Source of the DNA: an uncultured Actinomycetes bacterium
Lineage (GTDB): Bacteria; Actinomycetota; Thermoleophilia; UBA2241
Length of the DNA stretch: 64,000 bases
Assembly (NCBI GenBank): GCA_963753695.1
Contig: CAVWDG010000011.1
Location: forward strand, 100,324 to 164,323
Reading direction: 5' to 3'
Of the stretch, positions 2,680 to 57,678 are shown one piece after another. Both the position numbers and the translations under genes were made by a program. The notes below the pieces were generated by a model, which searched no databases, was not told the DNA's origin, and saw only the letters and a program-made list of their open reading frames with translations. The number at the start of each line of letters is the position of its first letter. Position 1 is the first letter of the stretch.

Positions 2680-3804
2680 TTACGCCTTGAGGGCGTCGGC
2701 CAGCGGCGTGTAGGTGAGGCCATGAGCCTCGGCGACGGACGGGATGGTGAGCTTGCCACGGTAGACGTTGACGCCAAGAGCCAGCGCTGCGTCTTCGGCG
2801 ACGGCCTTCTCGAAGCCCTTGTTGGCGAGCGCGAGGCCGAACGGCAGCGTCGCGCCGGCGAGGGCCATCGTGGAGGTGCGGGCCACGGCGCCGGGCATGT
2901 TGGCGACGCAGTAGTGGATCACGCCGTCGACCACATAGGTGGGCTCGGTGTGCGTGGTGGGCTTGGAGGTCTCGAAGCAGCCGCCCTGGTCGATGGCGAC
3001 GTCGACGAGGACCGAACCCGGCATCATGTTCTTGAGCATGCTCTTCTTGATCAGATGCGGGGCCTGCGCGCCGCCCGGCAGCAGCACGGCACCGACGACG
3101 AGGTCGGCGTCGGCGATCTCGGCCTCGATGGCCGCTTCGGTGCTGAGGACGGTCTCGATGTGACCGGCGAAGACGTCGTCGAGGTAGGTCAGACGCTCAG
3201 CGCTCTTGTCGACGACGACCGTGCGGGCGCCGATACCGACGGCGACCTTGGCGGCGTTGGCGCCGACGGTGCCGCCGCCGATGATGACGACCTTAGCCTG
3301 CGGTACGCCGGTGACGCCGCCGAGGAGCACGCCGCGGCCGCCGTTGTTCTTCTGCATGTGGGTGGCGCCGGCCTGGATGGCCAGCTTGCCGGCGACTTCG
3401 CTCATCGGGAAGAGGAGCGGATGGGCGCCGTTCGGATACTCGACGGTCTCGAAGGCGATGCCGCGGATATCGGCGGCGAGCATGGCGTCGGTGAGCTCAC
3501 GAGCGTAGGCGGCGGCCATGTGGAGGTAGGTGTACAGGATCTGGCCAGGCTTGAACTTCTTGTACTCGACCTGGATGGGCTCCTTGACCTTGTAGATCAG
3601 GTCGGCGCGCGCGAACACGTCGTCGACGGGAGCGAGCTCGGCGCCCGCAGCCTTGTACTCGGCGTCGCTGAAGCCTGAACCGACACCAGCGCCGGCCTCG
3701 ACCACGACGGTGTGGCCCGCGCGCACGAAGTCTTTGGCGCCGTTCGGCGTCATCGCGACACGGTATTCCTCGTTCTTGATCTCTTTCGGCACGCCGACGA
3801 TCAT
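2680..3804 (-). CDS. ald: alanine dehydrogenase
   Basis: 374-aa ORF, MIVGVPKEIKNEEYRVAMTP...GGGTVGANAAKVAVGIGA Rossmann motif; strong AGGAGG RBS upstream. Confidence 0.9.
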   Translation of the reverse strand: MIVGVPKEIKNEEYRVAMTPNGAKDFVRAGHTVVVEAGAGVGSGFSDAEYKAAGAELAPVDDVFARADLIYKVKEPIQVEYKKFKPGQILYTYLHMAAAYARELTDAMLAADIRGIAFETVEYPNGAHPLLFPMSEVAGKLAIQAGATHMQKNNGGRGVLLGGVTGVPQAKVVIIGGGTVGANAAKVAVGIGARTVVVDKSAERLTYLDDVFAGHIETVLSTEAAIEAEIADADLVVGAVLLPGGAQAPHLIKKSMLKNMMPGSVLVDVAIDQGGCFETSKPTTHTEPTYVVDGVIHYCVANMPGAVARTSTMALAGATLPFGLALANKGFEKAVAEDAALALGVNVYRGKLTIPSVAEAHGLTYTPLADALKA

Positions 3805-3829
3805 CGTCGTCCTCCTTGTTGACCGCAGT

Positions 3830-3960
3830 TCACCCAGCAGCCCCCGGTACGAACGCGTTGCCGGCGCGCATCATGCCCGTGGACGATGGCAGTCTAGCAG
3901 AAAAACCGAACGTCTTCTTCCATAGTCGAAAGAAAGCGAACGTGCGATTGCCGATTCGTT
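3830..3960 (-). promoter_or_regulatory. AT-rich ald upstream control region (candidate Lrp/AldR-type binding sites and promoter)
   Basis: Locally AT-rich island in a ~74% GC sequence, with repeated CGGTTTTT motifs. Confidence 0.3.
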
Positions 3961-4078
3961 AAAAACCGATGAGGACGGTGCCGTCGGGCCGCGGTCGGGC
4001 TGCGGTCGGCGCCCGCGTCGCCGCTGCCGCCGCCGGCGAGCGCGAGGCTGCGGCCGCCGGCAAGCGCGAGGCTGCGGG

Positions 4079-4576
4079 TCAGTCGTCGGCGCCGTTGGCC
4101 CGGGTCCAGGCCTGGGTCATGGCGGGCGGCAGGAGCAGCCACTTGTTGGCCGCCTTCATGACGACGAACATCTCGCTCGACTGTATGCCGCCCAGCTTCT
4201 GCAGCGAGGCGTTCAGGAACTCGTAGAGGCCGTTCATGCCGTCGGTGGTGACGACCTCGGCGATGATGTCGTAGCGCCCTGTGACCACCGCCGCCCAGCT
4301 CACTTCGTCGAGCGCCGCCAGGCGCTCGACCATCTCGTCTAAGTTGTAGCGGTCGAGGCTGAGACCGACGATGGCGATGGTGAGCTCGGGCGTCTCGGAC
4401 GAGGCGACCAGCGCCGCGACGCGCAGCACGCCCGCCCCGATCAGCTGGCGCAGCCGGCCGCGCACGGTCGGTGTGGAGATACCCAGGCGAGAGGCCATGT
4501 CGGAGGCCGCCAGGCGGCCGTTGCCGAACAACGTGGCGATCAGCGCCTTGTCGAGCGCGTCGAGTCCGCGTTTCAT
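4079..4576 (-). CDS. Lrp/AsnC family transcriptional regulator
   Basis: MKRGLDALDKALIATLFGNGRLAASDMASRLGISTPTVRGRLRQL... HTH plus RAM domain; start at Met residue 80 of ORF 4079..4813. Confidence 0.8.
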   Translation of the reverse strand: MKRGLDALDKALIATLFGNGRLAASDMASRLGISTPTVRGRLRQLIGAGVLRVAALVASSETPELTIAIVGLSLDRYNLDEMVERLAALDEVSWAAVVTGRYDIIAEVVTTDGMNGLYEFLNASLQKLGGIQSSEMFVVMKAANKWLLLPPAMTQAWTRANGADD

Positions 4577-4664
4577 GTCTCCCCCGCGTCGCTGCGGCCG
4601 CCACGGGCGGCCGTTCCCCGTATGTGTATCATACTGGACCTGAAGAGCGACGACGGGGGGCGGC

Positions 4665-5498
4665 ATGAGACTCGAAGGCGCGAAGTGCCTGGTGGTCGGC
4701 GGCGCGCGGCGCGCAGGCCGCGTCGTGGCGCTCGACCTGGCCGCCCACGGCGCCGACGTCGCGGTGAGCACGCGGTCGGCGGCCGGCGATGCCGCCCAGA
4801 CCTGCGCCGCCATCCGCGGCCTCGGCCGGCGCGGCGCGACGGTGTCGGGCGACGCCGCCGTGCCGGCCGAGGCCGCGCGCCTCGTGAGCGCCGCCGTCGA
4901 GGCCCTGGGCGGCCTCGACGTGCTCGTCTACGCCGCCAGCGGTCCCTTCAGCCCCGCCCTACCCCAGCACGCCGACCCCGCGGAATGGCAGGCGTCGTTC
5001 GACGTGATCGTGCGCGGCTTCTTCGTGACCGCCTGCGCGGCGCGCGAGGCGTTCGTCGACAGACCCGTCCCCGCGCCCAACGCGGCGCCCGCGGCCGGCG
5101 CCGTCCCCGGCGCCGGCGCCGCGCCGCCGGCCGTCGGGGCCGCGCCCATCCGGGGCGTTATCGTGGCGCTCACCGACGTGCTGGGCACCGTCCCATCGGC
5201 CGCCTTTGCCGGGCACGGCGCCGCCAAGGCGGCGCAGATCATGCTGGTGGCCTCGCTGGCCAAGGCCTGGGCGCCCGACGGCGTGCGGGTGTGCGGCGTG
5301 GCTCCGGGACCCATCGACCTGACCGACGACCCGCGGCGCGAGGCCACCATGAGAGCCGCGGCGAAGTCGGCCACCGGTCACCTGGTCGATGCCGCCGAGA
5401 TCGCGCGAGCGGTGCGCTTTATGATCGCCTGCGACGCCCTGACCGGCGTGAACCTGCCGGTCGACGGCGGCGAGCTGCTCGGCAGGTCGGCGCTCTAG
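4665..5498 (+). CDS. SDR family oxidoreductase
   Basis: KCLVVGGARRAGR glycine-rich NAD(P)-binding motif, YxxxK region (GHGAAKAA). Confidence 0.7.
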   Translation: MRLEGAKCLVVGGARRAGRVVALDLAAHGADVAVSTRSAAGDAAQTCAAIRGLGRRGATVSGDAAVPAEAARLVSAAVEALGGLDVLVYAASGPFSPALPQHADPAEWQASFDVIVRGFFVTACAAREAFVDRPVPAPNAAPAAGAVPGAGAAPPAVGAAPIRGVIVALTDVLGTVPSAAFAGHGAAKAAQIMLVASLAKAWAPDGVRVCGVAPGPIDLTDDPRREATMRAAAKSATGHLVDAAEIARAVRFMIACDALTGVNLPVDGGELLGRSAL

Positions 5499-7156
5499 AC
5501 GGGGCGCGCGACGCGCGGGCGCTTGCCCGACTGCGCCGTGAGCTCGCGCGCCTTGAGGGCCAGCCAGAACTCCATGCGGTCCTGCGAGCTGCCCAGGTCG
5601 CGCCCGGTGATGTCTTCGACGCGCTTCATGCGGTAGCGCAGCGTGTGGCGGTGCACGTAGAGGCGCTCCGCGGCTTCGCCCCAGTGGCCGTTGGCCTCGA
5701 GGAAGCACGCCAGGCTCTTGACCAGGTCGCTGGCGTTGGCCTCGTCGTAGTCGTGCAGCTTGCCGAGCACGCTGTCGTAGAAGACCTCGAGCGACACCGT
5801 GTCCTGCAGGCCGAGCAGCAGGCCGTACGAGCCCAGGTCGTCGAAGCTCGCGATGACGCTGGTGCTGCCCTTGAGCTTGCGGATCTGGATGGCGTACAGC
5901 GCCTCGTAGTAGCTCTGCCGCAGGTCGACGAGCAGGCGGTGGGGCCGGCCTATGCCGACCGAGACCGTGACTTCGGAGATCATGCCGCCGATCGTGCCCT
6001 GCAGCTCGGCGGCCAGCGCCAGCATGTCGTGCGGCGTACGCTGCCCGAGCTGGACCAGCACGATCACCGAATCGCTGTGCGACGCCGAGATGAACAGCAG
6101 GTCGCGCTGCGCGAGGAACTCGTCGACCGCCCAATGCAGGCGCTCCTTGACGTCCTGCACCGCCTGCTCTTTGTCGCGGGCGCCGTCGGCGAAGGCCTTG
6201 AAGCCGTCGATGTCGACCAGCATGATGAGCTGCTCGGCGCCCGGTTCGAGGCCGAAGAAGGCCAGGCGGCGGGCGATCTCCTCTTCGTAGAGGTCGCTGG
6301 CGATGAGCTCGTCGAAGAAGTCGCCGGCCAGCCGCTTTTCGGTCTCGGCGACCGCCTTCTTCTTGACCAGCTCGAGCGCCGTGACCGTGACCACGTGGTG
6401 CAGGATGATGCGGTCGTAGTCGGAGAAGTCGCCGCCGTCTTTGATGACCGCGAGAAAGGCGCCGATGCGGTGCGAGGCGACGACGGGGTAGACCTGCACG
6501 CTGCCGCCCGCGCCGTGCGGCGCCTCGGCGGCGAAGTCCTGGCGCGAGGCGCGCTTGTCGGAGATCTGCTTCCAGAGGTCGGCGATAAGCTCGGCGGGAA
6601 TGCGGCGCCGGTGCGCCGCCTCGCACAGCACGAGACCGTGAAAGTCGAACAGCACGGCCGAACAGCCGACCAGGGCCGAGAGCGTCGAGATGATGAACTG
6701 CAAGCCCTTTTCTTCGAGCACGATCTTGGTGAGCTTCTCGTGCACTGCCAGCGAGCGCTGCAGGAGCGAGTACTGCTCGTTGACGATCTTTGAGGCGACG
6801 GCTTCGGTGATGGCGATGAACGGGATGTTGTAGGGCACCTCGAACAGCGGAAAGTCGTGCTGCTCGGCGAGCGCGACCATGGACTCGGGCACCGTCTTGA
6901 AGCCGAAGCCCACGCCAAAGCCGAGACCGGACAGGTTGGCGTCGATCAGGCGGCGCAGCATGGCGAGCTGCTCGGCCTCGCGGTCGACCAGTGCGAGGCC
7001 CGTGGTGAGCAGCAGCTCGCCGCCCTTGAGCCAGCGCGTGGGGTCGGACATCTCGGCGATATGCACCCAGCGCACCGGGTTGCTGATCGCCTTCTTGCCT
7101 GCGCAGAGCCTGAGATTGAGACCGGGGATCTCGAGGATGTCCTGAACGGTGATCAT
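5495..7156 (-). CDS. PucR family transcriptional regulator
   Basis: N-terminal MITVQDILEIPGL...LLLTTG and C-terminal HTH (HRHTLRYRMKRVEDITG); GGGAGG RBS 11 nt upstream of ATG at 7156. Confidence 0.7.
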   Translation of the reverse strand: MITVQDILEIPGLNLRLCAGKKAISNPVRWVHIAEMSDPTRWLKGGELLLTTGLALVDREAEQLAMLRRLIDANLSGLGFGVGFGFKTVPESMVALAEQHDFPLFEVPYNIPFIAITEAVASKIVNEQYSLLQRSLAVHEKLTKIVLEEKGLQFIISTLSALVGCSAVLFDFHGLVLCEAAHRRRIPAELIADLWKQISDKRASRQDFAAEAPHGAGGSVQVYPVVASHRIGAFLAVIKDGGDFSDYDRIILHHVVTVTALELVKKKAVAETEKRLAGDFFDELIASDLYEEEIARRLAFFGLEPGAEQLIMLVDIDGFKAFADGARDKEQAVQDVKERLHWAVDEFLAQRDLLFISASHSDSVIVLVQLGQRTPHDMLALAAELQGTIGGMISEVTVSVGIGRPHRLLVDLRQSYYEALYAIQIRKLKGSTSVIASFDDLGSYGLLLGLQDTVSLEVFYDSVLGKLHDYDEANASDLVKSLACFLEANGHWGEAAERLYVHRHTLRYRMKRVEDITGRDLGSSQDRMEFWLALKARELTAQSGKRPRVARPV

Positions 7157-7283: not shown

Positions 7284-7625
7284 TCAGGCGCTCGGAGCGT
7301 TCGCCTCGACCACCACGGCGGTGCCGTACGCGATCACTTCGGTCATGTTCTGCATGAGCTCGGTGGCGTCGTAGCGCACGGCGAGGATGGCGTTGGCGCC
7401 CATCTGGTCGGCGTGCGCCACCATGATGGCGAAGGCCTCGGAGCGAGCCTGCTCGCACATCTCCACGTACTCGTCGATGCGGCCGCCGCCCAGCGAGCGA
7501 AAGCCGGCCGCGATCTGGCTGCCGAGGTGCGCCGAGCGCACGGTCACGCCGCGCACCACGCCCAAGTTGCGCACCACGTGACAGCCGGGCATCTCGAAGG
7601 TCGTCGTCGTCCACTGATAGTCCAC
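7284..7625 (-). CDS. YbjQ/UPF0145 family protein
   Basis: VDYQWTTTTFEMPGCHVVRNLGVVRGV... matches the YbjQ N-terminus (IITTTxxIEGYEIV); GTG start with GAGGAGGA RBS; ~113 aa. Confidence 0.7.
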   Translation of the reverse strand: MDYQWTTTTFEMPGCHVVRNLGVVRGVTVRSAHLGSQIAAGFRSLGGGRIDEYVEMCEQARSEAFAIMVAHADQMGANAILAVRYDATELMQNMTEVIAYGTAVVVEANAPSA

Positions 7626-7666
7626 AGCGTCCTCCTCGTCTGTGTTCGCTCGCTTCTCTGTTCTGC

Positions 7667-8782
7667 TCAGTCCATGTCGAAGACTCGATAGGGGCTCTCG
7701 CAGGGCGGGCCGGCGCAGGCGTACAGCCGGCGTTCGTCCAAGTCGCAGATGATGCTGCCGACGGTCATGCCCTGCTCCCCGGGCGGCTCGCTCTGGTCGG
7801 GATGGCCGCAGATGCAGGCCTGCGGCGAGGGCTCGTGGCAGCGCAGGATGTCGGCCACGAGAGCCACAGGCTCGGCGCCGTGGTCGAGCCCCGCGGCCAG
7901 CAGCGTCTCGGCCGTGCCCAGCCGCGTGCGCGACTCGTCGTGAGCGAAGCCCTCGAACGGCGCCATCTCGGGCGCCACATAGTGGTTGGTGTGGGCCAGG
8001 TAGCCTCGCGCCGTGTGGTCGGCGAAGGCGCTCGCCGTGGCCGACGACTCGATGTCCCACAGCCGCCCCGCGGTGTCGGCGAAGCACTGGTTGGTCCCGC
8101 GAGCGCGGGCGGCGGTCAGGCCGCGCTCGCGCGCCTCTTCGAGCGTGGCGGCGGTCATGGTCGAGCGCCGCACGAAGATGTTGGGCACGCCCACGCGATT
8201 GTCGCGGGAGTGCAGCGAGTTGCTCACGTTGCCGACGCCGTGCGAGTTCACGCCGACTATCGGCAGGTAGGCGGCGCCGGCGAAGGCCAGCAGCCGCGTG
8301 CCGTCGGGGCCGGTCAGGTCGAAGAGCACGTTGTTGGGGGCATCGACCACGTACCAGTCCATGTTGTGACCCACGATGTGCCGCCCGTCACAGGCCACGG
8401 CGACGGCGGTGCAGCCGGGCGTCACGAGACGGCGAGGCGAGGCCGGCGCGGCGGGCAGCGGCGCCGCGCCCACGACGGGCTCGGCGGCGGTGAGCTCTTC
8501 GGCGCAATTGGGCACCAACAGCGCGTCGAAGGACACTCCGGCGCCCTCGGCCATGCCTTCGAGCTCCGCGACCGGACCGGGAGCGTAGCGGCGCGCGTAA
8601 GGCAGGTAGGCGGCGGCCTGCCGGACGGCCGCGTCGAACGACAGCCCGCCGCTCATCGCCGCGAAATTGTCGGCAAAGAAGGCGAGCGAGGCCTCGATCT
8701 GCGGGCGCGCCGCCTCGCCGACCTGGCGCCCGATCTCGCGGTGCGAGCCCTGGGCGCGCACGTGGACGAAGGGGATCGCCAC
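7667..8782 (-). CDS. C45 family Ntn-hydrolase (acyl-CoA:6-aminopenicillanic acid acyltransferase-like)
   Basis: VAIPFVHVRAQGSHREIGRQVGE N-terminus and ...VTPGCTAVAV putative self-cleavage Gly-Cys nucleophile; GTG start preceded by AAAGGAG. Confidence 0.7.
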   Translation of the reverse strand: MAIPFVHVRAQGSHREIGRQVGEAARPQIEASLAFFADNFAAMSGGLSFDAAVRQAAAYLPYARRYAPGPVAELEGMAEGAGVSFDALLVPNCAEELTAAEPVVGAAPLPAAPASPRRLVTPGCTAVAVACDGRHIVGHNMDWYVVDAPNNVLFDLTGPDGTRLLAFAGAAYLPIVGVNSHGVGNVSNSLHSRDNRVGVPNIFVRRSTMTAATLEEARERGLTAARARGTNQCFADTAGRLWDIESSATASAFADHTARGYLAHTNHYVAPEMAPFEGFAHDESRTRLGTAETLLAAGLDHGAEPVALVADILRCHEPSPQACICGHPDQSEPPGEQGMTVGSIICDLDERRLYACAGPPCESPYRVFDMD

Positions 8783-8865
8783 CGGCCGGGCTCCTTTCGC
8801 GGGCTCGCGGGCGGACCGGCGCCCACGCGGGCCGGTCGCCCCTGTCGGTCTCAGCCTGCTCGCTG

Positions 8866-10406
8866 TCAGCTTGCTCGCTGCGCGCGCCGACCGTCGAGCA
8901 GGCGACGCGGGTCGGGCCACTCCGGCAGGCCGAGCTCGCGTGCGCACTCGTCGATCTGGGCGCACATCGCCGCCATTGTATCGGCAGGCAGGCCCACGGG
9001 CTCGCGCGCGAGCAGCTCGGCGACGCGCTCACGGGCGAGACCGGCGAGACCGGGGCCGACCGACCGGCGGCCGGCAGCGCCCGACCCGCGCTCGGCGGCC
9101 CCCGGCGCCCCGCCGGCGGCGCGGCCCCTGAGGCGCGGCGCCACGAGCTCGCTGCGCAGGTAGCGCCTCGTGTGCCTGCTGGCCAGGAAGCCCTTGTCGC
9201 CCAGCACCGTGTCGACGATCGCCCCCACGTCGAGCGCCTGGTCGTCGTAGGGGCGCGCGCTGAGCGCGTAGAAGACGTCGCCGAGGATGTCGTCGTCGAT
9301 GACCAGCGCCTCGAGGCTCGACGAGGCGCCGGCCGCCACGTCGCCCACGCCCGACAGAAAGCGCGGCCGGGCGAGCATGCCGAGCAGCGCGTTCAAGGCA
9401 TGCTCGGCGCCGAACTGGGCGTCGGCCACGTGTGAGTCGCTCGACGGTCCGTAGCAGTCACAGGCCATGCCGTAGCGGCGCGCCAGCAGCACCGCTGCGC
9501 ACGACGCCACGCCGGTCTCGGGGGTGCCTGAGCGGAACGCGCCGGTACGCGGGTCGACCGCCGACAGGCGCGGACCGTAGTAGGTCGGCGTTCCCGGGGC
9601 CACCGCCTGGACCACGACCAGGCCGGCGAGGACCTCGGCGTTCTGCAGCGCGACGGCGGCGGAGATCGCCCCCGGCGCCGTCGTGCCCGCCGCCGGGCAG
9701 GGCAGGATCTCGACCACGACCCCGCCGCGGCCCACCGTCTCGATCAGCGCGTCGGTCACCTCGGCGCCGAGCAGCAGGGGGCTCACCGGCGAGAAGGCGA
9801 GGTCGACCGGGTAGCGCCCGCCGGCGCCGCTGCTCCCCGTGAGGGCGATCGCCATCTTGCGCAGGTGGCGCGCCTGGAAGGGCCACGAGATGCCGGGCCC
9901 GCCCACGTACTTGTCGGTCTCGAAGGCGACGAGCAGGTACGAGTACAGCGGCTCGAGCTCGCCGGGCACGTCCTGGGGCTGCAGCAGCGAACAGACGGCG
10001 TGCTGGTTTTCGAGCTGATGCATGACCCTGGTGAAGTCGCCCTGGTCGGCCAGCGTGGCCCGCCGCGCGACGCCGGTGAAGGCGTCGGAGACCTTGGCGG
10101 CACCCCCCATGTTGTGCACGAAGATGTCGCCCGGCGCGGCGTCGATGGCGAGGGAGCGCCCCGCGCCGCGCGCGCTCAGCACGTAGGCGGCGCACTGGGC
10201 GGCCACCGCTTGCGCTACGACGGCGCGGGGTACCAGCACCCGGCCGGGAGCGCCTTCGCGGCAGCCCGCGCGCAGCAGCAGCTCGCGCGCCGCGGGCGAC
10301 TCAACACGCACGCCGGCGCGCTCGAGCAGTTCGAGCGAAGCTGTGTGGATGGCGTCGATGGCCTCGTCGGGCCAGAGCGCACCGACGGCAGCATGCGTAG
10401 CCTGGC

Positions 10407-10410
<4 letters not shown>
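8866..10410 (-). CDS. MttB-superfamily methyltransferase (trimethylamine/glycine-betaine:corrinoid type), non-pyrrolysine; start codon uncertain
   Basis: ...LWPDEAIDAIHTASLELLERAGVRV...TIM-barrel MttB family signature over ~510 aa; no in-frame TAG. The N-terminal 280 aa of track ORF 8866..11238 are out-of-frame overlap with the upstream ATPase gene. Confidence 0.75.
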
Positions 10411-11497
<1,087 letters not shown>

Positions 11498-11498
<1 letters not shown>

Positions 11499-12517
11499 CA
11501 GGCCACCTTCCAGCAGCGCGCGAAGTGCCCGGGGTCGAGCTCGACCATCTCCTGCTCGGTCTGCGTGCAGGCCGGCTCGCCCTCGGAGCAGCGCGGGTAG
11601 AAGCGGCAGCCCGGCGGCGGGTTCAACAGGTTGGGCGGGTCGCCGGCGATCGAGCTCACCATCTCGCGCGTCTCGTGGATGTTGGGGAACGCCTTGATGA
11701 GCTGCCTCGTGTAGGGGTGCTTGGCGTAGTTGAAGATCTGCGTGGTGGTGCCCGCCTCGACGACCTTGCCGGCGTACATGATGACGCCCTTGTCGCAGGT
11801 CTCGGCCATGACCGACAGGTCGTGGCTGATGAGGATGAACGACAGGTCGAGCTCGTGGCGCAGGCGCTCGATGAGCTCGAGGATCTGGGCCTGCACCATG
11901 ACGTCGAGCGCCGTGGTGGGCTCGTCGCCGATGATGAGCTTGGGGTTGCAGGCGAGGGCCATGGCGATCATGGCGCGCTGCCGCATGCCGCCCGACATCT
12001 CGTGGGGGTATTCGGTGACCCGCTTGGGGTTGATGCCCACCAGGTCGAAGAGCTCGCGAGCCCGCACCATGGCCTTGGCCTCGGAGATGCCTTCGTGGAG
12101 CACGATGGGCTCGGCGATCTGCTTGCCCACCTGCTGCACCGGGTTCAGGGCGTTCATGGCGCCCTGGAAGATGATCGAGATGTCCTTCCAGCGCACCTTG
12201 CTCATACCGTACTCGGTGCGCTTGGCCAGGTTCTTGCCGTCGAAGAGGATCTCGCCGCTGACGATGCGGCCGTTCTCGGGCAACAGCTTGAGGATGGCGA
12301 GGGCCGCCGTGGTCTTGCCGCAGCCCGACTCACCGGCCAGGCCCAGACTCTTGCCGTGCTCGACCATGAAGCTCACGCCGTCGACCGCCTTGACGTCGCC
12401 GTCGCGCAGCTTGAAGTAGGCTTTGAGGTCGCGCACGTCGAGGATGCCGTCGTGCTCGATGGGCTGGCCTTTGGCGGCCGCCTCGGCGGCCGGGGCGGCC
12501 GACTGCACCTTGCTCAT
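11498..12517 (-). CDS. ABC transporter ATP-binding protein, OppD/DppD type
   Basis: MSKVQ... [25 protein letters not shown]; AAGGAGGG RBS; 4-nt ATGA overlap with downstream ATPase gene. Confidence 0.85.
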
Positions 12518-13960
12518 GGCCGCCCTCCTTCGTTGCCGTGCGGATCCCAGTCGTTCGCGGGACCCGGCCAGATACCGCCCCCGGCGGTCGTCGAGGCTGA
12601 TCTCGGTGCCGCCGGCGCCGCCGCCCAGGGTGAGGAGGCGGTCGGGACCTTCGTCGGGCCGCCCGCCGCTCTCTTCGCGCTTGCGCAGCTTGGGGTCGAG
12701 GACTTCGTCGAAGGCCGTGCCCATGAAGGTGAAGGCCAGCACCACGAGCACGATGGCGATGCCCGGCGGCAGCAGGTACCACCAGGCCGGCAGGTCCGGC
12801 GGCGCCCGACTACCCAGGCGTAGTGGAGCATGGTGCCCCAGCTGAAGTTGAGCGGGTCGCCGAGGCCGAGGAACGACAGGGTGGTCTCGGAGAGGATGGC
12901 GATGGCCACCACCAGCACTAGGTTGGCGAAGACCAGGGGAAGACGTTGGGCAGGACGTGTTTCTGCATGATGTGCCAGTTGCCGAGCCGATGGCCCGGCC
13001 GCGCTCGATGAACGGCAGCTCGCGCACGCGCAGGGCGTCGGCGCGCACGACGCGAGCGGTGCCGGGCCAGCTCGTGATGCCGATGATGAGCACGATGATG
13101 CCAGTAGTGCTGCGCCCCAGGCGGCGGCCAGCACCATGGCCAGGGGCAGCCAGGGGATGACCAGAAAGACGTCGGTGAGGCGCATGCAGATCTCGCCGCG
13201 CCAGCCGCCGTAGTAGCCGGCGGAGATGCCGATGCCCGCGCCCAGGACCGTCGAGATGACGGCGGCCGAAAGGCCGACGGTGAGCGAGATGCGGGCGCTC
13301 CAGATGAACTTCGGCGAGCACCGACATGCCCTGTTCGGTCCATGCCGAACCACGGTAGTAGTGGATGGGTGGGCGGAGGGGCCGAAGGTGGCCCGCCCGA
13401 CCTGGGCGTCGGGTCGAGCAGCGCGTGGTCGGCGAGGAACGGCGCGAGCAGCGCCATGGCCACGAAGACGGCCATGATGACGAGACCCGCCATGCCCTGC
13501 CAGTTCGACCGGTACAGCCGCCAGATCTGGCGGGTGTTCCAACCGTGAGCTCGGCGCGCTCGGGGTTGCCGGGGCCCACGCCCAGACGCGGGCCGCCAGG
13601 GCCACGATGAGCAGCGTCTGCAGCAGCCAGGCGATGGTCGTGTCGCGGCCGGGGAGAGAGAAGTGGCCGGTCGCCAGGCCGCTGGCCGCGAAGAACCCAC
13701 GCCGCGCAGACCAGCGCGGCGCCGAGCAGCACCCGGGGAAGGCCGAACGCGTCGTCTGGCGCGCCAGCTTGACGACGCCGTAGGCTCCGAGAGCGAGCCC
13801 CGGAATGAGCGGTATGTAGGCCGGATAGTTCGCCACGTGGCCGAGAAGAAGCCGCGAGGACGTGGGCGACACCCGTGCGCAGCGGGCGGTCCTTGGGGTA
13901 GGTGATGAGCTCGAGCATGAGCCAGACGACCGGCGTCCAGACGAGGACCCAGTGCGCACC
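12514..13960 (-). pseudogene. OppC/DppC-type ABC permease, disrupted by multiple frameshifts (5' boundary uncertain)
   Basis: Permease motifs are split across all three minus frames. WRLYRSNWQGMAGLVIMAVFV (13493..13430) and GNWHIMQKHVLPNV are in one frame. ARISLTVGLSAAVIS...AGYYGGW and LSETTLSFLGLG are in a second. WPGTARVVRADALRVRELPFIERGRAIGS and WWYLLPPGIAIVLVVLAFTFMGTAFDEVLDPK are in a third. Confidence 0.6.
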
Positions 13961-13977
13961 GCCGGGGGATCATGCCT

Positions 13978-14943
13978 TCACCCGCGGGTCGAGGTAGTAG
14001 TACATGATGTCGGCGATGAGGTTGGCGAGGATCACGGCGACGGAGGCGAGCAGGAACACCGCCTGCATGACCGGGTAGTCACGCTGCACCATCGAGTCGT
14101 AGGAGAGCAGGCCCAGCCCCGGCCAGTTGAAGACCGCTCTCGGTGAGGATGGCGCCCGAGAGCACGAAGCCGATGTTCATCATGATGAGCGTGACGGTGG
14201 GCAGCATGGCGTTGGGCACCACGTGACGCCAGAGCACGTTGCTTTCTCGACAGGCCCTTGGCGCGCGCCGTGAGCGCGAAGTCCTCTTTCATCACGCCGG
14301 TGATGCGAGCTGCGCATGATCAGGTGGTACTCGCCCACGTAGGTGATGGCGAAGGTGAAGGCCGGCAGGAAGAGGTGGTGCATGAGGGCCCCCAGCTGCG
14401 AGTACCAGCCGGTGTAGACCACGCCCGGGTCGGTACATGCGCCCCGCAGGGAACCAGCGTAACTACGTGGAGAAGAGCATGATGAAGAGAGGCCGACCCA
14501 GAAGGTGGGCATGGAGTACATGATCATGCCGGTGTTGGTGGTGGCCACGTCGAAGCGTGCTGTTACGCCGCCAGCCGGCGAACACACCCATGACGAGCCG
14601 ATGATCGTGGCGAACAACGTGCCCGTGCCGACCAGCAGCAGCGTCGGCCAGATGCGCTCGCCCACCACCTGGGCAACGGGCCGCTTCTGGGCGAAGGAAT
14701 CGCCGAACTTCCGGCGGACGGTGTCGTTCCAGTAGTAGACGAACTGCTCGTAGAGCGGCTTGTCGAGGTGAAAGAGGGCGCTTCTTTGGCCAGGGCGTCC
14801 ATGGAGAAGCGGCCCTTGGGGGTGAGCAGCCGGGCGGGGTCACCGGGCAGGATGCGAAAGAGCACGAAGTTGAACGACGCGATGAGGACGATCGTGAGCA
14901 GCGCGTTCAGGATCTTGCGAACGAAGTAGCGCCGTTTATCCAC
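13978..14943 (-). pseudogene. OppB/DppB-type ABC permease, disrupted by multiple frameshifts
   Basis: MDKRRYFVRKILNALLTIVLIASFNFVLFRILPGDPARL, VGERIWPTLLLVGTGTLFATIIG, TARAKGLS and C-terminal NWPGLGLL...IADIMYYYLDPRVKA all lie in different minus frames. Confidence 0.6.
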
Positions 14944-15210
14944 GGCGCGAGCGCGTGCGAAGAAGCGATGCGGTGGCCATCGCGCCCATTCCCCCTCCTC
15001 TCATGGCATCCCGGCGCCGACCGCGGCCAAGCCCGCGGCGCGCCGTCACTCAGTGTGCAAGAGAGACGGCCCCAAGGCAAGGGGTCTGTCGGGGCCGTCC
15101 CGAGTGGGCCGGCGACCGGCAGCGCCACCACGGCCTCGCGCTCAGTCTGAGGTGCAGTCTAGCGCAACTCGCGCGGTGAAAGGGGGCCCAAAAGTCGCAA
15201 GGCACGTGGC

Positions 15211-15263
15211 CAAAACGGCGCTGGGGCGGGCCGTCGCCGGCAGGCGACGGCCCGCCCCCAGCG
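15211..15263 (-). terminator. rho-independent terminator after the MtgA-like gene
   Basis: Perfect ~20-bp inverted repeat GCGCTGGGGCGGGCCGTCGCC-ggcag-GGCGACGGCCCGCCCCAGCGC followed by GTTTTGG on the minus strand. Confidence 0.5.
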
Positions 15264-15320
15264 CACCGGAGACGTACCGGACAGCGCGACCCCGGAGGGC
15301 CGGCTACCGGAAGAGATCTG

Positions 15321-16127
15321 CTATTCGAGCAGCCCCGCGCGGTGGGCCTTGAGGTAGTTGCCGCAGAAGCTGTCTTCGTTGCGCAGCGCTTCGACGGCCT
15401 TGATGGTGGCCATCATCTGCTTGTTGCGCACGTCGAGCACGGCGCCGTCGATGCCGATGCCGGCGCACATGGAGACGAAGGTGCGGTTGAGCAGCGGGCG
15501 GTTGGGCAACCCGAAGCTGACGTTGCTGAGGCCGCCCGTCGAGCGCACGCCCGGCAGGTTGGCCTTGATGAGCGCCAGGGTGCCCATGGTCACGAGGGCC
15601 GCCGTGGAATCGGCGGAGACGGTCATGACCAGCGGGTCGAACCACATGTCCTCGGCGGGCAGGCCGGCCGCGGAGAGCTTGTCGTGAAGCATCTTGGCGA
15701 CGGCGAAACGGTCTTCGGCCGTGCAGGGGATGCCTTCGTCGTTCAGGCAGAGGGCGACGACCGGGCACTTGTACTTCTCGACCAGCGGCAGCACCGTGTC
15801 GATGCGGCTCTGCTCGCCGCTGATGGAGTTGATGTGGGGGATCTTGCCGCCGTCTTTGATGGCCGCTTCGACGCCGGCCTGCAGGGCGGCGGGGCTGGCG
15901 GAGTCGATCATGAGCTGATTGTCGGTGACACTGCGCACCGTGGCGATGAGCCAGAGAAGGTCTTCGACCTCGTTGCCGCCGGCCACGCCGCCGTTGACGT
16001 CGAGGATGTTCGCGCCGGCCGTGACCTGATCGGTCGCGAGCGTCTTGATGAACTCGGCGTCACGCGCCCCAATGGCTTCGCCGACCTGCTTGCGAGTCCC
16101 GTTGATCGATTCGCCTACCAACAGCAT
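15321..16127 (-). CDS. methyltetrahydrofolate:corrinoid methyltransferase, pterin-binding domain (MtgA/MtrH/AcsE-like)
   Basis: MLLVGESINGTRK... DHPS-like pterin-binding barrel; ATG at 16127 preceded by GGAGGT. Confidence 0.75.
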   Translation of the reverse strand: MLLVGESINGTRKQVGEAIGARDAEFIKTLATDQVTAGANILDVNGGVAGGNEVEDLLWLIATVRSVTDNQLMIDSASPAALQAGVEAAIKDGGKIPHINSISGEQSRIDTVLPLVEKYKCPVVALCLNDEGIPCTAEDRFAVAKMLHDKLSAAGLPAEDMWFDPLVMTVSADSTAALVTMGTLALIKANLPGVRSTGGLSNVSFGLPNRPLLNRTFVSMCAGIGIDGAVLDVRNKQMMATIKAVEALRNEDSFCGNYLKAHRAGLLE

Positions 16128-16280
16128 GACCACTACCTCCACGACTTTTGTGATGCGAGATCGGCCCCGACGGCCGGCGTCGAGCCGCAGCGTCGGACTA
16201 TCGTTGGCCGGGGTCCGTATCTTACAGAGCGCGCGGAGGGGTTGCCAACCGTAGCCCTGTCGGAGCGCCCGGGAGGACCG

Positions 16281-19200
16281 TCAGTCGCCGACCGCCGCCG
16301 GCGGCGGAGCGGGCGCGCCCGAGGCGCGGCACTGGTCGAGAAAGAGGCGCGCCAGCACCGGGTCGAACTGCACGCCGGCGCCGGCGCGGATCTCGGCGCG
16401 GGCCTCGTCTAAGCTGAGGGCCGCGCGGTAGGGCCGGTCGGACAGCATCGCCTGAAACGAGTCGCCGATGGCGATCAGCCGCGCACCCATGGGGATCTCG
16501 TCGCCGCGCAGCCCGTCGGGGTAGCCGCGGCCGTCCCAGCGCTCGTGGTGGTGGCGCACGATCTCGACGAACTCGGTGGGCGCCTCGGCGTTGGTGAAGA
16601 TGTCGACGCCGAGCTCGACGTGGCGGCGCAGCTCGTCGCGGTCGGCGTCGGTCAGGCGGTCGCCCTTCTCGAGGAGTTCGGCGCGTATGCCGACCTTGCC
16701 GACGTCGTGCAGGCGCGCCGCCACCTCGTAGATGGCGCGGTCGGCGTCGGCCAGGCCGGCGCGCTCGCCGAGCTCGCGCACCATCTCGGCCACGGCGTCG
16801 CCGTGGTGTTCGCGGTAGCTCGCCTTGGCGTCGACCGCGGCGGCCAGCACCTCGATGCCGTTGCGCCAGGAGCGTTCGCCCGAGTCGTCGCTGGGGCGCG
16901 CCTCCATCATCTCGCGCACGTCGCGGTAGTAGAGCACGCAGTTGCGCCCGCGCCGCTTGGCCCAGAGCAGCGCCGTGTCGGCCGCCCCCAGAACGGTCTT
17001 GGCATCGAGGCCGCAGGCGGGAAAGTCGGCGACGCCGATCGAGGCCGATACGCGAAACGCGTCGCCCTCCTCGACTTCGATCTCGCGCACGCGCGTGCGG
17101 ATGCGGTCGGCGAGCTGGCAGGCGTCTTCGGGCGAGGTCTTGGGCAGCAGGGCGGCGAACTCCTCGCCGCCGTAGCGGGCCGCGTAGTCGGCCTCGCGCG
17201 TGGTGTTGGAAAGGACCTGGGCGACCTCGCGCAGCACCGCGTCGCCGCGGGGGTGGCCGAAGTGGTCGTTGACCCTCTTGAAGTGATCGAGGTCGAGCAT
17301 GAGCAGCGAGAAGCCGTCGCCGTAGCGCTCGCAGCGGCGCACCTCGTGCTCGAGGGTCTCCTGGAAGTGGCCGTGATTGTAGAGGCCGGTCAGCGGGTCG
17401 GTGACGGCGCGCAGCTGGCTGCGCTCGTAGAGCGAAGCGTTCTCGATGGCGATGGCCGCGAGGTTGGCGAACGGCTTGACGAGCTCGAACTCCTCTTCGG
17501 AGAAGGTCTTGCCGCCGAGGCGGTCGAGGTTGAGCACGCCGATCACCTTGTTCATGACGTGGAGCGGCAGCACGATCGAGGCCTGCGGTTCGACCGGCGT
17601 ATCGGGCACTTGGTTGGCGCGGGGGTCGTCGTGCGCCGCGTTGCACAGCAGGGCCTCGTCGTGGGTGACGGCCCAGCCCCAGAGCCCCTGCTCTACGCTG
17701 ATCGGGTTGTCGATCAGCTCCTGGGCGTATTCGTCGCGCGCCCACGCGGTGACGATGCGGCGCGTGTCCCACTCGACCTTGCTGATCGCCAGCGTGTCGT
17801 ACTCGACGAGCAGGCGGAGCTTCTCTGTGATCGCCTCGAACACGACCTGCTCGTCCAAGGTTGAGAGGATCGACTCGCTCACGCGCACGAGGTCCTGCTG
17901 CGACTGGAGCTGTCGCTCGAGGCGCAGCTCCTGCACCTCGAGCGCGGCGTACTGCTGGGCATTCTCGATGGCGATCGCGGCCTGGTTGGCGAAGATCTCG
18001 ACGCCGCGGATGGACTCCATGGTGGGCAGCAGACGGTCGAGGGGGTCGTTGACGGAGAGAGCTCCCAGGCAGCGGCCGGCGCGCGACTGCAGGGGCACGA
18101 CCAGGCAGTCGCCGGTCTGCCACTCGTCATCGCGACGCGCGCCCAGGTCGGTGACGGGCAGCAGCCGGCGTTCGTCAGGGCTCGGCGGCACGCGCCGGCG
18201 CTGGCGGAAGAACGAGTTGCCCATGCGGAACTCGGGGCGCATCGTCTGCTCGAAGACCTTCATGGGGATGGGCGTCGTCAGGTAATGACTGCTGAGCTCG
18301 GGCGAGCCGCCCAGCGACACGCGGGCCTGCAGGGTCTCGGCCGTCTCGTCGTAGAGGAACAGATCGACCTGCCGGTAGCTGAGCGACTCGAGCACGGTCG
18401 CCGCGACGCGCTGCAGCACCTGGTCCAAGTCGAGTGTGGCGCGCAGCTCGTAGCCCAGGCGCAGCAACGCTTCGAGGGTGGATGAGCGTTCGGCGAGCTC
18501 GGCGGCGAGCTGCGAACGGCGCTCGTAGAGGCTCGCGTTGTTGATCATGAGAGCAGCGAAGCCGGCCACCGCCTGCCCCACGCCGATGCGCTCGTCGTCG
18601 AAGTCGGCCTCGCGGCCCGGTTCGTCGAGCACGGCGACGCCGAACAGCTCGCCCTGGGCGACGAACGGCAGGGCGAGGACCTTACGGGCATCGAGCGTCG
18701 CGAACTCGGCTTTGCCGACCCCCGGGCTTTCCGGCGTCATGACCAGCGGCTCGCGCAGGTCGCGCAGCCAGTCGCTCACGTGCCCCTTGCCGTCGCCGAA
18801 CGGAGCCACGAGGGCGGCTCCGGTGGAGGCGGCGAGGCGCAGGTGATCGCCTTCGACCAGCAGGATGGCGCAACGCGACACGCCCACCGCGGCGGTGAGC
18901 TGCTGCGCCATCGAACCGAGCAGGTGGTGCAGGTCGAGCGAGGCCGCGAGGTCGGTGGCGACACGGCCGAGCATGCCGGCGGCCGGCGTGAAGTGCGGCA
19001 GGGCGTGCTGCACGCCGGGTGCCGGACGGTGGCGCAGGGCGAGCACGACGGCGAGGGCACAGACGGCGGCGAGGGCGAGGACCGTCGCATAGACGTGGGT
19101 GCCGCCCTCGACGGCCAGGAGGCCGAGGAAGGCGAGAAACCCGGCGAGCGACGTGAAGACCGCCTCGCGCCACGAGAGCACCAGGGCAGCGGCGAGCGCG

Positions 19201-19319
19201 GGCACTGCGTAGAGCAGCACCGCCACCGAGTCGTTGTCGACGCGCCAGCTCACGAGGGCGGCCAGCGCCAGAGCGCAGACGACGAGGATCGCCTGCCGGC
19301 TGCGGATACGCTTGCGCAA
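16281..19319 (-). CDS. membrane-anchored multi-GAF GGDEF (diguanylate cyclase) / HD-GYP (phosphodiesterase) signalling protein
   Basis: N-terminal TM helices, GAF regions, GGDEF domain with RYGGEEF motif, and C-terminal HD-GYP (HDVGK...HHERWDGRGYP). Confidence 0.8.
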   Translation of the reverse strand: MRKRIRSRQAILVVCALALAALVSWRVDNDSVAVLLYAVPALAAALVLSWREAVFTSLAGFLAFLGLLAVEGGTHVYATVLALAAVCALAVVLALRHRPAPGVQHALPHFTPAAGMLGRVATDLAASLDLHHLLGSMAQQLTAAVGVSRCAILLVEGDHLRLAASTGAALVAPFGDGKGHVSDWLRDLREPLVMTPESPGVGKAEFATLDARKVLALPFVAQGELFGVAVLDEPGREADFDDERIGVGQAVAGFAALMINNASLYERRSQLAAELAERSSTLEALLRLGYELRATLDLDQVLQRVAATVLESLSYRQVDLFLYDETAETLQARVSLGGSPELSSHYLTTPIPMKVFEQTMRPEFRMGNSFFRQRRRVPPSPDERRLLPVTDLGARRDDEWQTGDCLVVPLQSRAGRCLGALSVNDPLDRLLPTMESIRGVEIFANQAAIAIENAQQYAALEVQELRLERQLQSQQDLVRVSESILSTLDEQVVFEAITEKLRLLVEYDTLAISKVEWDTRRIVTAWARDEYAQELIDNPISVEQGLWGWAVTHDEALLCNAAHDDPRANQVPDTPVEPQASIVLPLHVMNKVIGVLNLDRLGGKTFSEEEFELVKPFANLAAIAIENASLYERSQLRAVTDPLTGLYNHGHFQETLEHEVRRCERYGDGFSLLMLDLDHFKRVNDHFGHPRGDAVLREVAQVLSNTTREADYAARYGGEEFAALLPKTSPEDACQLADRIRTRVREIEVEEGDAFRVSASIGVADFPACGLDAKTVLGAADTALLWAKRRGRNCVLYYRDVREMMEARPSDDSGERSWRNGIEVLAAAVDAKASYREHHGDAVAEMVRELGERAGLADADRAIYEVAARLHDVGKVGIRAELLEKGDRLTDADRDELRRHVELGVDIFTNAEAPTEFVEIVRHHHERWDGRGYPDGLRGDEIPMGARLIAIGDSFQAMLSDRPYRAALSLDEARAEIRAGAGVQFDPVLARLFLDQCRASGAPAPPPAAVGD

Positions 19320-20128: not shown

Positions 20129-21767
<1,639 letters not shown>

Positions 21768-22098: not shown

Positions 22099-22124
22099 TG
22101 GCACTCACACCATGAGAGTGCTAA
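22099..22124 (-). promoter_or_regulatory. CIRCE element (HrcA operator) in groES 5' UTR
   Basis: Minus strand TTAGCACTC-tcatggtgt-GAGTGCCAA, 17/18 match to CIRCE consensus TTAGCACTC-N9-GAGTGCTAA. Confidence 0.75.
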
Positions 22125-22372
22125 CGCTTGGGAGACGTTATGGTATGGCCCGTACCGGGACTTGTCAAACGATGGCCATCGGCCGGCGGCACTGTGGCCG
22201 ACAGTGTCAGATTCCCCTTCTGAGCAGGTTTTTTCGCCCACAAGACAAGGAATCCGAGACGCCCGCCGGCGGGCGGCCGCGAGGCCGCGTCGGCGGCCGA
22301 CTCAGGGCGCCGGGCGAGCGGATGGCGCCCGACGCTGGCCACGCTCCCGTCGGCCGCCGTACAATCAGCGCC

Positions 22373-22810
22373 ATGCGCGTACTGCTGCAGCGGGTCGAGC
22401 GAGCCACGGTGACCGTCGAGGGTCGCGAGGTGGCGGCCGTCGGGCGCGGCTTCCTCGCCCTGGTCGGCGTGACCCATGCGGACACCCGCGAGAATGCCGC
22501 TCGACTGGCCGCCAAGACGGTCAAGCTGCGCGTCTTCGACGACGAGCGCGGACTCATGAACCGCGCCATCGGCGACAGCGGCGGCGCCCTGCTCGTCGTC
22601 TCGCAGTTCACGCTCTACGCCGACACGCGCCGCGGCAATCGCCCGAGCTTCACCGACGCCGCGCCGCCGGCCCAGGGCGAGGAGCTCTACGAGGCCCTCG
22701 TCGCGGCGCTGCGCGCCGCCGGTCTCGAGGTCGCGACCGGCGTGTTCGGCGCCCACATGCACGTCTCGCTGGTCAACGACGGCCCCGTGACGATCCTGCT
22801 CGAAGACTGA
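22373..22810 (+). CDS. dtd: D-aminoacyl-tRNA deacylase
   Basis: MRVLLQRVERATVTVEG...SQFTLYAD...GPVT, 145 aa; ATG is residue 95 of ORF 22091..22810. Confidence 0.85.
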   Translation: MRVLLQRVERATVTVEGREVAAVGRGFLALVGVTHADTRENAARLAAKTVKLRVFDDERGLMNRAIGDSGGALLVVSQFTLYADTRRGNRPSFTDAAPPAQGEELYEALVAALRAAGLEVATGVFGAHMHVSLVNDGPVTILLED

Positions 22811-22847
22811 GGCGCCGCCCGTCGGGGGCGCCGGCGAGTCCACAAAG

Positions 22848-22895
22848 ACGACGGCGGGGCGGGGGCCGCATGCGGCCCCCGCCCCGCCGTCGTCT
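22848..22895. terminator. bidirectional palindromic terminator between convergent dtd and permease genes
   Basis: Perfect palindrome GACGACGGCGGGGCGGGGGCCGCA|TGCGGCCCCCGCCCCGCCGTCGTC. Confidence 0.5.
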
Positions 22896-22910
22896 GCACC
22901 GCCCCCGGGA

Positions 22911-26666: not shown

Positions 26667-26925
26667 GAACTGGTCGGCCGCGAATCAACGGGCGCCGGCG
26701 AGCCGACGCCTGCGCCTTGGCCGGTGTCGCCTGGGGCATTGCGCCTTTGGGCGCCGCCGCCCGGGGCGCCGCGCTGCCGCGCGCCGCCGCGACCGGGGTG
26801 TCGCCGGGTGTGACGTTCGTCTTCATCTCGTGCCGTGGAGCTCCCGTCTCGGACAGGGCCGTCCTGCCGCGGTGGTCGATGCTCCTAGTCTTACCCGTTT
26901 ACGGCGACCACGCGACGGCCGCCGG

Positions 26926-36871: not shown

Positions 36872-37776
36872 TCACCGGCGCCGCGCGGCGCGGGCCCGGC
36901 GGCGCAAGTTCACGGCGTGTTCGCGGGCCAGCGCCTCGCGGCCGCCGGCGGCCAGGCGCTTGCCGCGCGGCAGGCTCTGGCAGAGGGGGCAGAAGTGCGT
37001 GCCGCGCCCACCGAGCTCGACGCGCTCGATCGGTGTGTCACAGACGCGGCACGGCCGGCCGGTGCGCCCGTAGACGTTGAGCATCGCCTGAAAGTCGCCG
37101 CTCGCGCCGTCGGGGTCGACAAAGGTGTCGATCGAGGCGCCGGCGTGCTCTATGCCGAGCTGCAAGGTCTCGAGCAGGGCGTCGTGCAGGCGCTCGATCT
37201 CGCCGGGACCGAGCGTGCCGGCCGTGCGAAGCGGGTGCAGCCGTGCCCGGAACAGCGTCTCGTCGGCGTAGATGTTGCCCACACCGGCGATGCGCCGCTG
37301 GTCGAGCAGGAACGACTTGAGCGGGGCGGTCCGCTGCTCGAGCGCACGTCGCAGGTAGGCGCTCGTGAAGGCGTCGCTGAACGGCTCGGGGCCGAGCGCG
37401 GCGAAGAAGGCGTTCTCGTCGGCGGCCGGCACCGCCCACACCCGCCCGAAGCGGCGCGTGTCGTAGAACAGCAGCTCGGCGTCGGGCCGCAAGCGCGCGA
37501 CGAAGCGCGGCGCCCGTCCCCCGGTTCGGGGGCGAGCAGGAGACGTCCGGTCATGCGCAGGTGCACGACGAGCAGCATGCCCTCGAGCTCGATGATGAGG
37601 TACTTGCCGCGCCGTCGCAGAGCGACGACGCGACGCCCCACGAAAGCGGCCCGCAGATCGGCGCCGGTCTGGTTGGAGACGAGAGGATCGTTCACCGTCA
37701 CCTCGTCGACCACCAGACCTGGCAGGCAGGTCTCGAGGCGGCGCCGCACGGTCTCGACCTCGGGCAGCTCAGGCAT
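36872..37776 (-). CDS. mutM: formamidopyrimidine-DNA glycosylase; frameshift near 37500
   Basis: N-terminus MPELPEVETVRRRLE in ORF 37150..37776; H2TH and zinc-finger C-domain (...CRVCDTPIERVELGGRGTHFCPLCQ) in ORF 36872..37492. Confidence 0.8.
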
Positions 37777-45150: not shown

Positions 45151-45308
45151 GAAAACTAAGTCGAAGCTCACACTGCCGGGCGCGTCTGGGACCGTCGTCG
45201 AGATTCTTGTTGGAGGGCACCTCCTGCTTGGCTCACGGCATTCTAACCTTTTTCGCCGCGGGCGCGGAGGCGTCTTCTGCCCGGCATTGGCCGCGGACGG
45301 CCGCAAGC

Positions 45309-54198: not shown

Positions 54199-54202
54199 CT
54201 CG

Positions 54203-54886: not shown

Positions 54887-54888
54887 GC

Positions 54889-57673: not shown

Positions 57674-57678
57674 GCGCT

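Follow-up and report, generated by a model that had tools for sequence, protein, structure and literature searches.

We describe a gene cluster in a 64,000-nt stretch of DNA from an uncultured actinomycete of the Thermoleophilia (lineage UBA2241; assembly GCA_963753695.1, contig CAVWDG010000011.1, positions 100,324 to 164,323; hereafter the window; G+C ~71%). The cluster joins a methyltransferase of the MttB family and a methyl-tetrahydrofolate (methyl-THF):corrinoid methyltransferase (MT2) to an oligopeptide (Opp)-type ATP-binding cassette (ABC) importer and to N-terminal nucleophile (Ntn) hydrolases. This pairing, proposed in an earlier note made from the letters of the window alone, is borne out as a conserved module: its linkage is conserved in more than 70 related loci, and from its gene content it would be a catabolic cluster conserved among uncultured Thermoleophilia-like Actinomycetota, the window holding one copy. 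The best explanation that we can offer has two parts, namely that the cluster serves uptake, cleavage and methyl transfer, and that the frameshifts in its two permease genes are consensus errors; taken jointly, we give them an even chance. No description of the cluster was found in the searchable literature.

Relatives were gathered in three ways, by look-ups of MttB homologues, by a scan of species-representative genomes with MttB and by a scan of metagenomes with OppD, and all fetched loci (designated below by L numbers) were then surveyed by tblastn. Their sources label them Thermoleophilia or Actinomycetota, and they come from peat (metagenome-assembled genomes, MAGs, of the Stordalen palsa, bog and fen), lake and river sediments, soils (Microflora Danica, MFD, MAGs) and bioreactors. 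In more than 70 of them, genes for Pterin_bind, OppB, OppC, OppD, OppF, MttB and C45 proteins follow each other in this order, with a Peptidase_S58 gene optionally placed before oppB and a gene for a family-5 substrate-binding protein (SBP_bac_5) optionally placed before mttB; in most of these loci the transporter stands between MttB and Pterin_bind, down to OppD identities of ~75%. The fuller order, with both optional genes and then PucR (L079, L101), is apparently the ancestral form, and PucR is kept at the cluster end in distant loci too (L079, L102). The window's subclade (L003, L007, L008, L022) is without the S58 and SBP genes and has gained YbjQ and, upstream, a GGDEF gene that is found beside the cluster nowhere else; its place is taken by an aldehyde dehydrogenase in L101 and L102. 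A tsaE-rimI-tsaD-TPP enzyme-groES-groEL neighbourhood (TPP, thiamine pyrophosphate) is common to the window, L101 and L102. Structural variants occur as well: the Illumina contigs L024 and L031 have lost oppB and most of oppC but retain oppD and oppF; mttB is absent from L024, L026, L038 and L051; and L102 is without all of oppBCDF and C45, so that Pterin_bind, SBP, MttB and PucR remain. In the window itself ten genes lie on the minus strand between 5495 and 19319, encoding in order GAF-GGDEF-HD-GYP, Pterin_bind, OppB, OppC, OppD, OppF, MttB, C45, YbjQ and PucR proteins (Pfam, NCBIfam). The set, order and strand are those announced beforehand, but PucR, at 5495-7156, falls outside the interval 7284-19319 to which the genes had been assigned.

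The MttB-superfamily methyltransferase (8866-10410, minus strand) matches the Pfam profile MTTB (PF06253, E=1.9e-55) with its residues 11-426 over profile positions 34-444 of 500. Its frame runs uninterrupted from 10410 to 8866 with no in-frame UAG, in keeping with its previous description as a non-pyrrolysine (non-Pyl) member of the family, and it scores 228.6 bits against TIGR02369, the Pyl-type trimethylamine methyltransferase model, whose cut-off is 525. Its placement rests on residue-level and score-based tests against MtgB and this model. The MtgB structures 9yce and 2qne are matched at E=4e-39 and ~30% identity. MtgB binds glycine betaine through Y97, R312, H348 and F356 (PMC13080624); these align to G, D, a gap and G in the window protein, so that none of the four residues is kept, and the enzyme falls outside the MtgB clade, as its claimed novelty had demanded. 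The column of R312 stands in an ungapped, well-aligned block (LARxYG...DAQxGxE), and the position is an invariant Asp, in the motif ACDCYGP, in 14 clade members. In all superfamily members with known function R312 is kept, and their substrates are all acidic quaternary amines (PMC13080624). On these residues the window enzyme is not an MtgB and would belong to a distinct clade with an altered pocket, and we infer that the substrate of this clade is not an acidic quaternary amine.

The start of mttB is peculiar. Relatives begin the gene with ATG or TTG eight codons before a conserved Trp, the TTG overlapping the oppF stop as TTGA. At this position the window has ACG (10396-10398), as does an independent short-read contig of the Joint Genome Institute (JGI; L002), and L001 has GCC; each of the three has a CTG codon (10408-10410 in the window) that overlaps the stop of oppF as CTGA. 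The gene is nevertheless under purifying selection, its ratio of non-synonymous to synonymous substitution rates (dN/dS) being 0.22 within the ACG clade with the N-terminal codons included. Because mttB is without a canonical start and yet under purifying selection, its translation probably begins at CTG or ACG and is coupled to that of oppF. The co-translation argued earlier from the abutting of the OppF stop and the MttB start is supported in this way, with the correction that the two overlap and that no canonical start codon is involved.

The second methyltransferase, a 268-aa MtgA/MtgD/AcsE-like protein (15321-16127, minus strand; Pfam Pterin_bind), scores 301.7 bits against NCBIfam NF005719, above the curated cut-off of 259. 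Its nearest solved relative is 4o0q, a Desulfitobacterium hafniense methyltransferase (E=1.5e-48), followed by 2yci and 2e7f, and the identical protein is found on four other short contigs. What the window does not supply is a linked partner for these enzymes. Pfam scans of essentially all sizeable open reading frames (ORFs) of the window gave no B12-binding domain, nor did precomputed Pfam calls in the 10-kb flanks of related loci, and a six-frame scan of the window and ~100 related loci (~700 kb) for the motif DxHxxG...SxL...GG gave none in a coding-like frame. The reported lack of an MtgC/MttC-type corrinoid protein therefore extends well beyond the window. As an oddity it is a real difference from mtgBCA and mttBC, but it is not unprecedented: in Ruegeria pomeroyi the genes for MtgB, MtgC and MtgD are spread over separate loci, and methionine synthesis also makes use of MtgC (PMC12478193). 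Because an MttB-family enzyme (MT1) and a bona fide corrinoid-dependent MT2 are both present, a corrinoid protein encoded in trans is the economical reading. Alternatively, the MttB homologue and the pterin-binding protein could work with no corrinoid protein, the methyl group passing to THF directly or through free cobalamin, as might be suspected from the lack of a corrinoid-binding gene in the window and ~100 related loci in which MT1 and MT2 are always linked. This we consider very improbable, given that a corrinoid partner is used by all characterised enzymes of the MttB superfamily and by all close MT2 relatives (PMC13080624), that unlinked corrinoid proteins are documented (PMC12478193) and that flanks of at most 10 kb say nothing about the rest of the genome. 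It had also been reasoned that the locus would be an ordinary degraded copy if its gene order were common in relatives with intact permeases, an adjacent binding protein and a corrinoid protein: the first two are common, while the corrinoid protein is never found.

The importer is represented in the window by two intact ATPases, OppD (11498-12517, 339 aa) and OppF (10407-11498, 363 aa), both on the minus strand and both matching Pfam ABC_tran and oligo_HPY. OppD is 91-96% identical to its orthologues in a single frame and OppF aligns to that of L002 with zero gaps. Both permease genes are recognisable yet frameshifted in the window and intact in relatives. As in the Opp/Dpp/App importers of peptides and opines (PepT family), there are two permeases and two oligo_HPY ATPases, with a family-5 SBP in relatives; the present set differs in being placed between two methyltransferase genes, in missing the SBP gene in the window's subclade, and in a hydrophobic N-terminal extension of OppC. 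This multi-transmembrane extension, ~210 aa, stands ahead of the OppC_N/BPD_transp_1 core (L003, 6217-7872; window, ~13540-13976), and intact OppC orthologues reach 484-551 aa in total with a variable middle segment.

That no substrate-binding lipoprotein is present is correct for the whole 64-kb window. In ~22 related loci, however, an SBP_bac_5 gene with a signal peptide lies between oppF and mttB, and therefore the term SBP-less, earlier applied to the module, describes the locus of the subclade; judged from the gene order of relatives, the absence would be a loss in the window's subclade. The best solved matches of the SBP are AppA and AgaA, which are peptide- and opine-binding, with no ligand indicated. 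On two contigs the SBP and MttB appear as one ORF (L102, 10965-14258, 1097 aa; L012, 6718-9765, 1015 aa). A genuine fusion was rejected because Illumina contigs carry the SBP as a separate ORF with a stop, L102 being long-read and L012 having masked bases; the long ORFs are probably due to the loss of a stop, or to assembly or masking.

Two hydrolases belong to the cluster family. The C45-family autoproteolytic acyltransferase/hydrolase, an Ntn hydrolase resembling acyl-CoA:6-aminopenicillanic acid acyltransferase (AAT; 7667-8782, minus strand; Pfam AAT), passes the cut-off of NCBIfam NF040521 (174.8 bits against 85) and keeps the Gly-Cys site in TPGCTAV; the Penicillium acyltransferase is a distant relative (E=1e-5). 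Against a D-aminopeptidase structure the S58 protein of the relatives reaches 320 bits, and against DmpA 254 bits, which places it near DmpA/BapA; its gene is absent from the window. No prior description links S58 or C45 hydrolases to methyl transfer.

How might these parts act together? We hypothesize that the Opp/Dpp-family importer, dependent on the SBP in the ancestral form of the cluster, would take up a small peptide-like or amide-linked compound bearing N-methyl groups. Ntn hydrolases, C45 in the window and in addition the DmpA-like S58 aminopeptidase in most relatives, could then cut the amide bond; the MttB-family enzyme would methylate a Co(I) corrinoid protein whose gene lies elsewhere in the genome and the pterin-binding enzyme would hand the methyl group to THF, the gene set being under the control of the PucR-type regulator. 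The identities of the genes, their conserved linkage, the lack of a linked corrinoid protein and the purifying selection on MttB are observations; the kind of substrate, the succession of the steps and a partner encoded in trans are inferred. Against the scheme, neither a corrinoid protein nor a RamA-type activase was seen.

A looser association is also conceivable, in which an ordinary operon for uptake and hydrolysis of D- or beta-peptides happens to adjoin an MttB/pterin pair engaged in general one-carbon or methionine metabolism. It would fit the variants without MttB (L024, L026, L038, L051) or without the transporter (L102), and it could draw on the bidirectional MT2 of R. pomeroyi, which is shared with methionine synthesis (PMC12478193). 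The layout of the window also has something to offer it: the pterin-binding gene is followed by a GC-rich hairpin and UUUU (15219-15267, minus strand; fold -79 kcal/mol, z = -5.9), in agreement with the terminator previously assigned to it, and is preceded by a promoter-like site (16219-16248, minus strand; TTGGCA-18-TAAGAT, 9/12 matches, a consensus match only). Because of this hairpin and this promoter-like site, the locus is likely a gene cluster of several transcription units, not a proven single operon; with a GGDEF gene confined to the subclade, the word operon was too strong. Further downstream the genes are packed tightly, with oppB/oppC and oppC/oppD each overlapping by 4 nt (ATGA), oppD/oppF by 1 nt (TGATG) and oppF/mttB by 4 nt at the CTG codon (CTGA); of the two 4-nt overlaps first reported, that of OppC and OppD stands and that of OppD and OppF shrinks to a single nucleotide. 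The loose association is hard to square with the flanking of the transporter by MttB and Pterin_bind across most of the >70 loci, at OppD identities as low as ~75%, and with the overlapping or abutting of oppF and mttB (TTGA, CTGA, short gaps), and we regard it as improbable. The 370-nt spacer 5' of oppB matched zero Rfam families; a riboswitch or other RNA element near the cluster was discarded as a candidate, the spacer and the whole window having given only a glmS ribozyme and one tRNA-Met, both elsewhere.

Set beside known systems, the proposed uptake and methyl-transfer cluster has both familiar and unfamiliar features. Like MtgBCA of D. hafniense and Acetobacterium, it combines a non-Pyl MttB-family TIM-barrel enzyme with an MT2, the latter having its nearest solved relative in D. 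hafniense. It differs (i) in having neither a linked corrinoid protein nor RamA, (ii) in an MttB that is ~30% identical to MtgB and keeps no glycine-betaine-binding residue, (iii) in a transporter of the Opp/Dpp type, not the betaine/choline type, and (iv) in the two Ntn hydrolases. R. pomeroyi is likewise neither acetogenic nor methanogenic and pairs an MttB-family MT1 with a pterin-binding MT2, its corrinoid component being encoded away from MT1 (PMC12478193), as would be the case here. Its substrate is glycine betaine and its MT1, MT2 and MtgC stand at separate loci (PMC12478193), whereas the present cluster always keeps MT1 and MT2 together, alongside an importer and hydrolases, and its MttB has a different substrate pocket.

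MttB homologues of the non-Pyl kind are plentiful; the handful with known substrates all act on acidic quaternary amines. The cluster, in which one MttB clade meets a peptide-type importer, two amide hydrolases and a changed pocket, is in this respect a lead to a new substrate class. Tentatively, and with the chances leaning against us, we propose that a widespread, undescribed branch of MttB enzymes, in which the Arg that binds the substrate carboxylate has become an invariant Asp, uses new non-acidic, possibly cationic or amino-bearing, methyl donors, freed inside the cell by the DmpA-like and C45 hydrolases from an imported D- or beta-aminoacyl or acylated compound, with the methyl group reaching THF through a corrinoid protein that also serves other pathways. 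In a bolder variant, the oppDF ATPases, which survive the clean oppBC deletions of L024 and L031, would have a role beyond the importer. A new class of methyl donor would imply an unrecognised route of methylated-nitrogen turnover in Thermoleophilia-like actinobacteria of peat and soil. Non-Pyl mttB is expressed by Actinobacteriota of Stordalen Mire, including the genus Bog-752 (PMC10805028), and one of the related loci, L015, is from the isolate bog_752.

The permease genes raise a different question, that of sequence quality. The oppB-type gene (13973-14943, minus strand) carries eight one-base indels (14781-14138) and one in-frame stop (TGG>TAG), and the oppC-type gene (12514-13976, minus strand), which includes the N-terminal extension, carries ~16 (13958-12589) and also one stop. 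A noisy stretch, 12589-14842, holds all of these ~24 window-specific indels, as defined by alignment with relatives, together with an excess of substitutions. OppB and OppC are thus broken in the sequence as it stands and OppD and OppF are intact, as the earlier note had it; natural decay is nevertheless less likely than consensus error. Most likely, the frameshifts arose as consensus errors where a long-read metagenome assembly crosses a strain-variable, poorly supported stretch; deliberate or simulated mutagenesis of the stretch is conceivable as well. We reach this view because the indels are single-base and balanced, dN/dS is unchanged, the OppB of L018 is intact and housekeeping genes are split as well. 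Some 24 of 26 indel events are of 1 nt, with 13 insertions and 13 deletions, and 16 of 24 have no adjoining identical base, being mostly outside runs, a pattern that does not resemble replication slippage. Corrected for frame and compared with L021, dN/dS is 0.27 for OppB and 0.37 for OppC, against 0.23-0.25 and 0.32-0.38 in intact relatives. Natural pseudogene decay proceeds mostly by substitutions, with indels that vary in size and are biased to deletions and to repeats. In oppB the window has ~13 singleton substitutions above L018 against eight indels, and is therefore far from substitution-dominated decay; relaxed selection, a substitution excess of that kind and size-variable, deletion-biased indels were not found for either gene.

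Independent contigs place the boundary of the problem. Over 1,560 nt, including the non-coding spacer, the short-read contig L018 matches the window at 100% identity, with the first difference at 14842; past this identical run, starting 100 nt into oppB, it differs by 5%, and its OppB is intact (323 aa). The flanks have zero gaps against four independent short contigs covering 8.7 kb. The broken permease genes are peculiar to the assembly of the window: wherever related loci with oppB and oppC come from short reads or a better consensus, the genes are intact, and the assemblies of the close relatives L001, L004 and L016 are full of frameshifts. Related MFD contigs were assembled from Nanopore reads only and polished once with Medaka (PMC12313526). 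A broken-ORF product from the OppC region was met only once, on a single contig, in a collection of 15 billion proteins, and exact-protein look-ups of OppF, OppD and an OppB fragment gave zero records. The substitution spectrum (transitions to transversions, GC>AT bias) was tried as a discriminator and set aside as uninformative, intact relatives being equally rich in G<>C changes.

Elsewhere in the window, too, at least six housekeeping genes that an organism would hardly do without are split. Besides glmS, those that appear as two ORFs in different frames are GroEL (20129-21701), the TPP-dependent enzyme (25037-26684), Fpg (36872-37803), GlmM (46580-47927) and CcmF (55695-57679). GroEL and the TPP enzyme are single and intact in the syntenic L101 (545 and 566 aa). 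The case of glmS is instructive: the gene is divided into a GATase ORF (44193-44951) and an SIS ORF (43123-44196), both on the minus strand, directly behind an intact glmS ribozyme (RF00234, 90 bits, 44994-45157, minus strand), and an intact ribozyme before a broken essential gene indicates an assembly frameshift. Separately, an 894-aa amino-acid permease ORF (22121-24805, minus strand), whose Pfam match is limited to residues 21-421, may be another fusion made by a frameshift.

Were oppB and oppC true pseudogenes, the importer would be dead and the module eroding, while oppDF, mttB and the hydrolase would stay under selection, perhaps with another permease pair or another role. This is a possible, though distinctly less probable, account, and several observations favour it at the expense of consensus error. 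The damage is confined to the two permease ORFs, a neat fit that would not be expected of an artefact, at ~1 indel per 90 nt or ~50x the window background, and each gene has its nonsense codon. OppB changes derived on the window branch look neutral, with ~8 synonymous and ~19 non-synonymous by hand count, and the loss of the MttB start codon is genuine. No near-identical intact OppB, above 93% identity, was found (the best is 91%), in a search whose E cut-off of 1e-100 left out short fragments and which is silent on broken fragments elsewhere. The Nanopore statement concerns related MFD contigs and not the window itself. Finally, cluster erosion does occur in nature, since clean deletions that remove oppB and most of oppC but spare oppDF are found on Illumina contigs of relatives (L024, L031), as are losses of mttB (L024, L026); L102 has lost oppBCDF. 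Decay would nonetheless have to accommodate indels that are single-base, outside homopolymers and equally often insertions and deletions, an overall dN/dS that is unchanged, zero differences from L018 in the adjoining non-coding spacer, frameshifts in essential genes elsewhere in the window and a broken product seen on one contig only. We hold artefact to be roughly twice as probable as real decay, and the contrast between decayed permeases and pristine ATPases probably has no biological origin. More generally, frameshifts that cluster in long-read MAGs can be mistaken for gene decay.

The remaining genes of the cluster lie at its two ends. Upstream is the 1012-aa GAF-GAF-GGDEF-HD-GYP cyclic di-GMP protein (16281-19319, minus strand), identified by Pfam GGDEF, HD_5 and three GAF stretches and with GGEEF and HHERWDGRGYP motifs in its translation. 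At the downstream end are the YbjQ/UPF0145 protein (7284-7625, minus strand; Pfam YbjQ_1, E=6e-33) and the PucR-family transcriptional regulator (5495-7156, minus strand; Pfam PucR, GGDEF_2 and HTH_30). After PucR come genes for a short-chain dehydrogenase/reductase, an AsnC-type regulator and an alanine dehydrogenase (2680-5498), also present in L003, L004 and L102; these too may be part of the catabolic neighbourhood, for instance if the aminopeptidase releases alanine. At a distance from the cluster, the window also encodes a System I cytochrome c maturation set (53458-58101, minus strand; a CcmA-like ABC ATPase, CcmB, a CcmC-like protein, CcmE and CcmF), adjoined by the haem biosynthesis genes HemA and HemD; System I is less usual than System II in actinobacteria.

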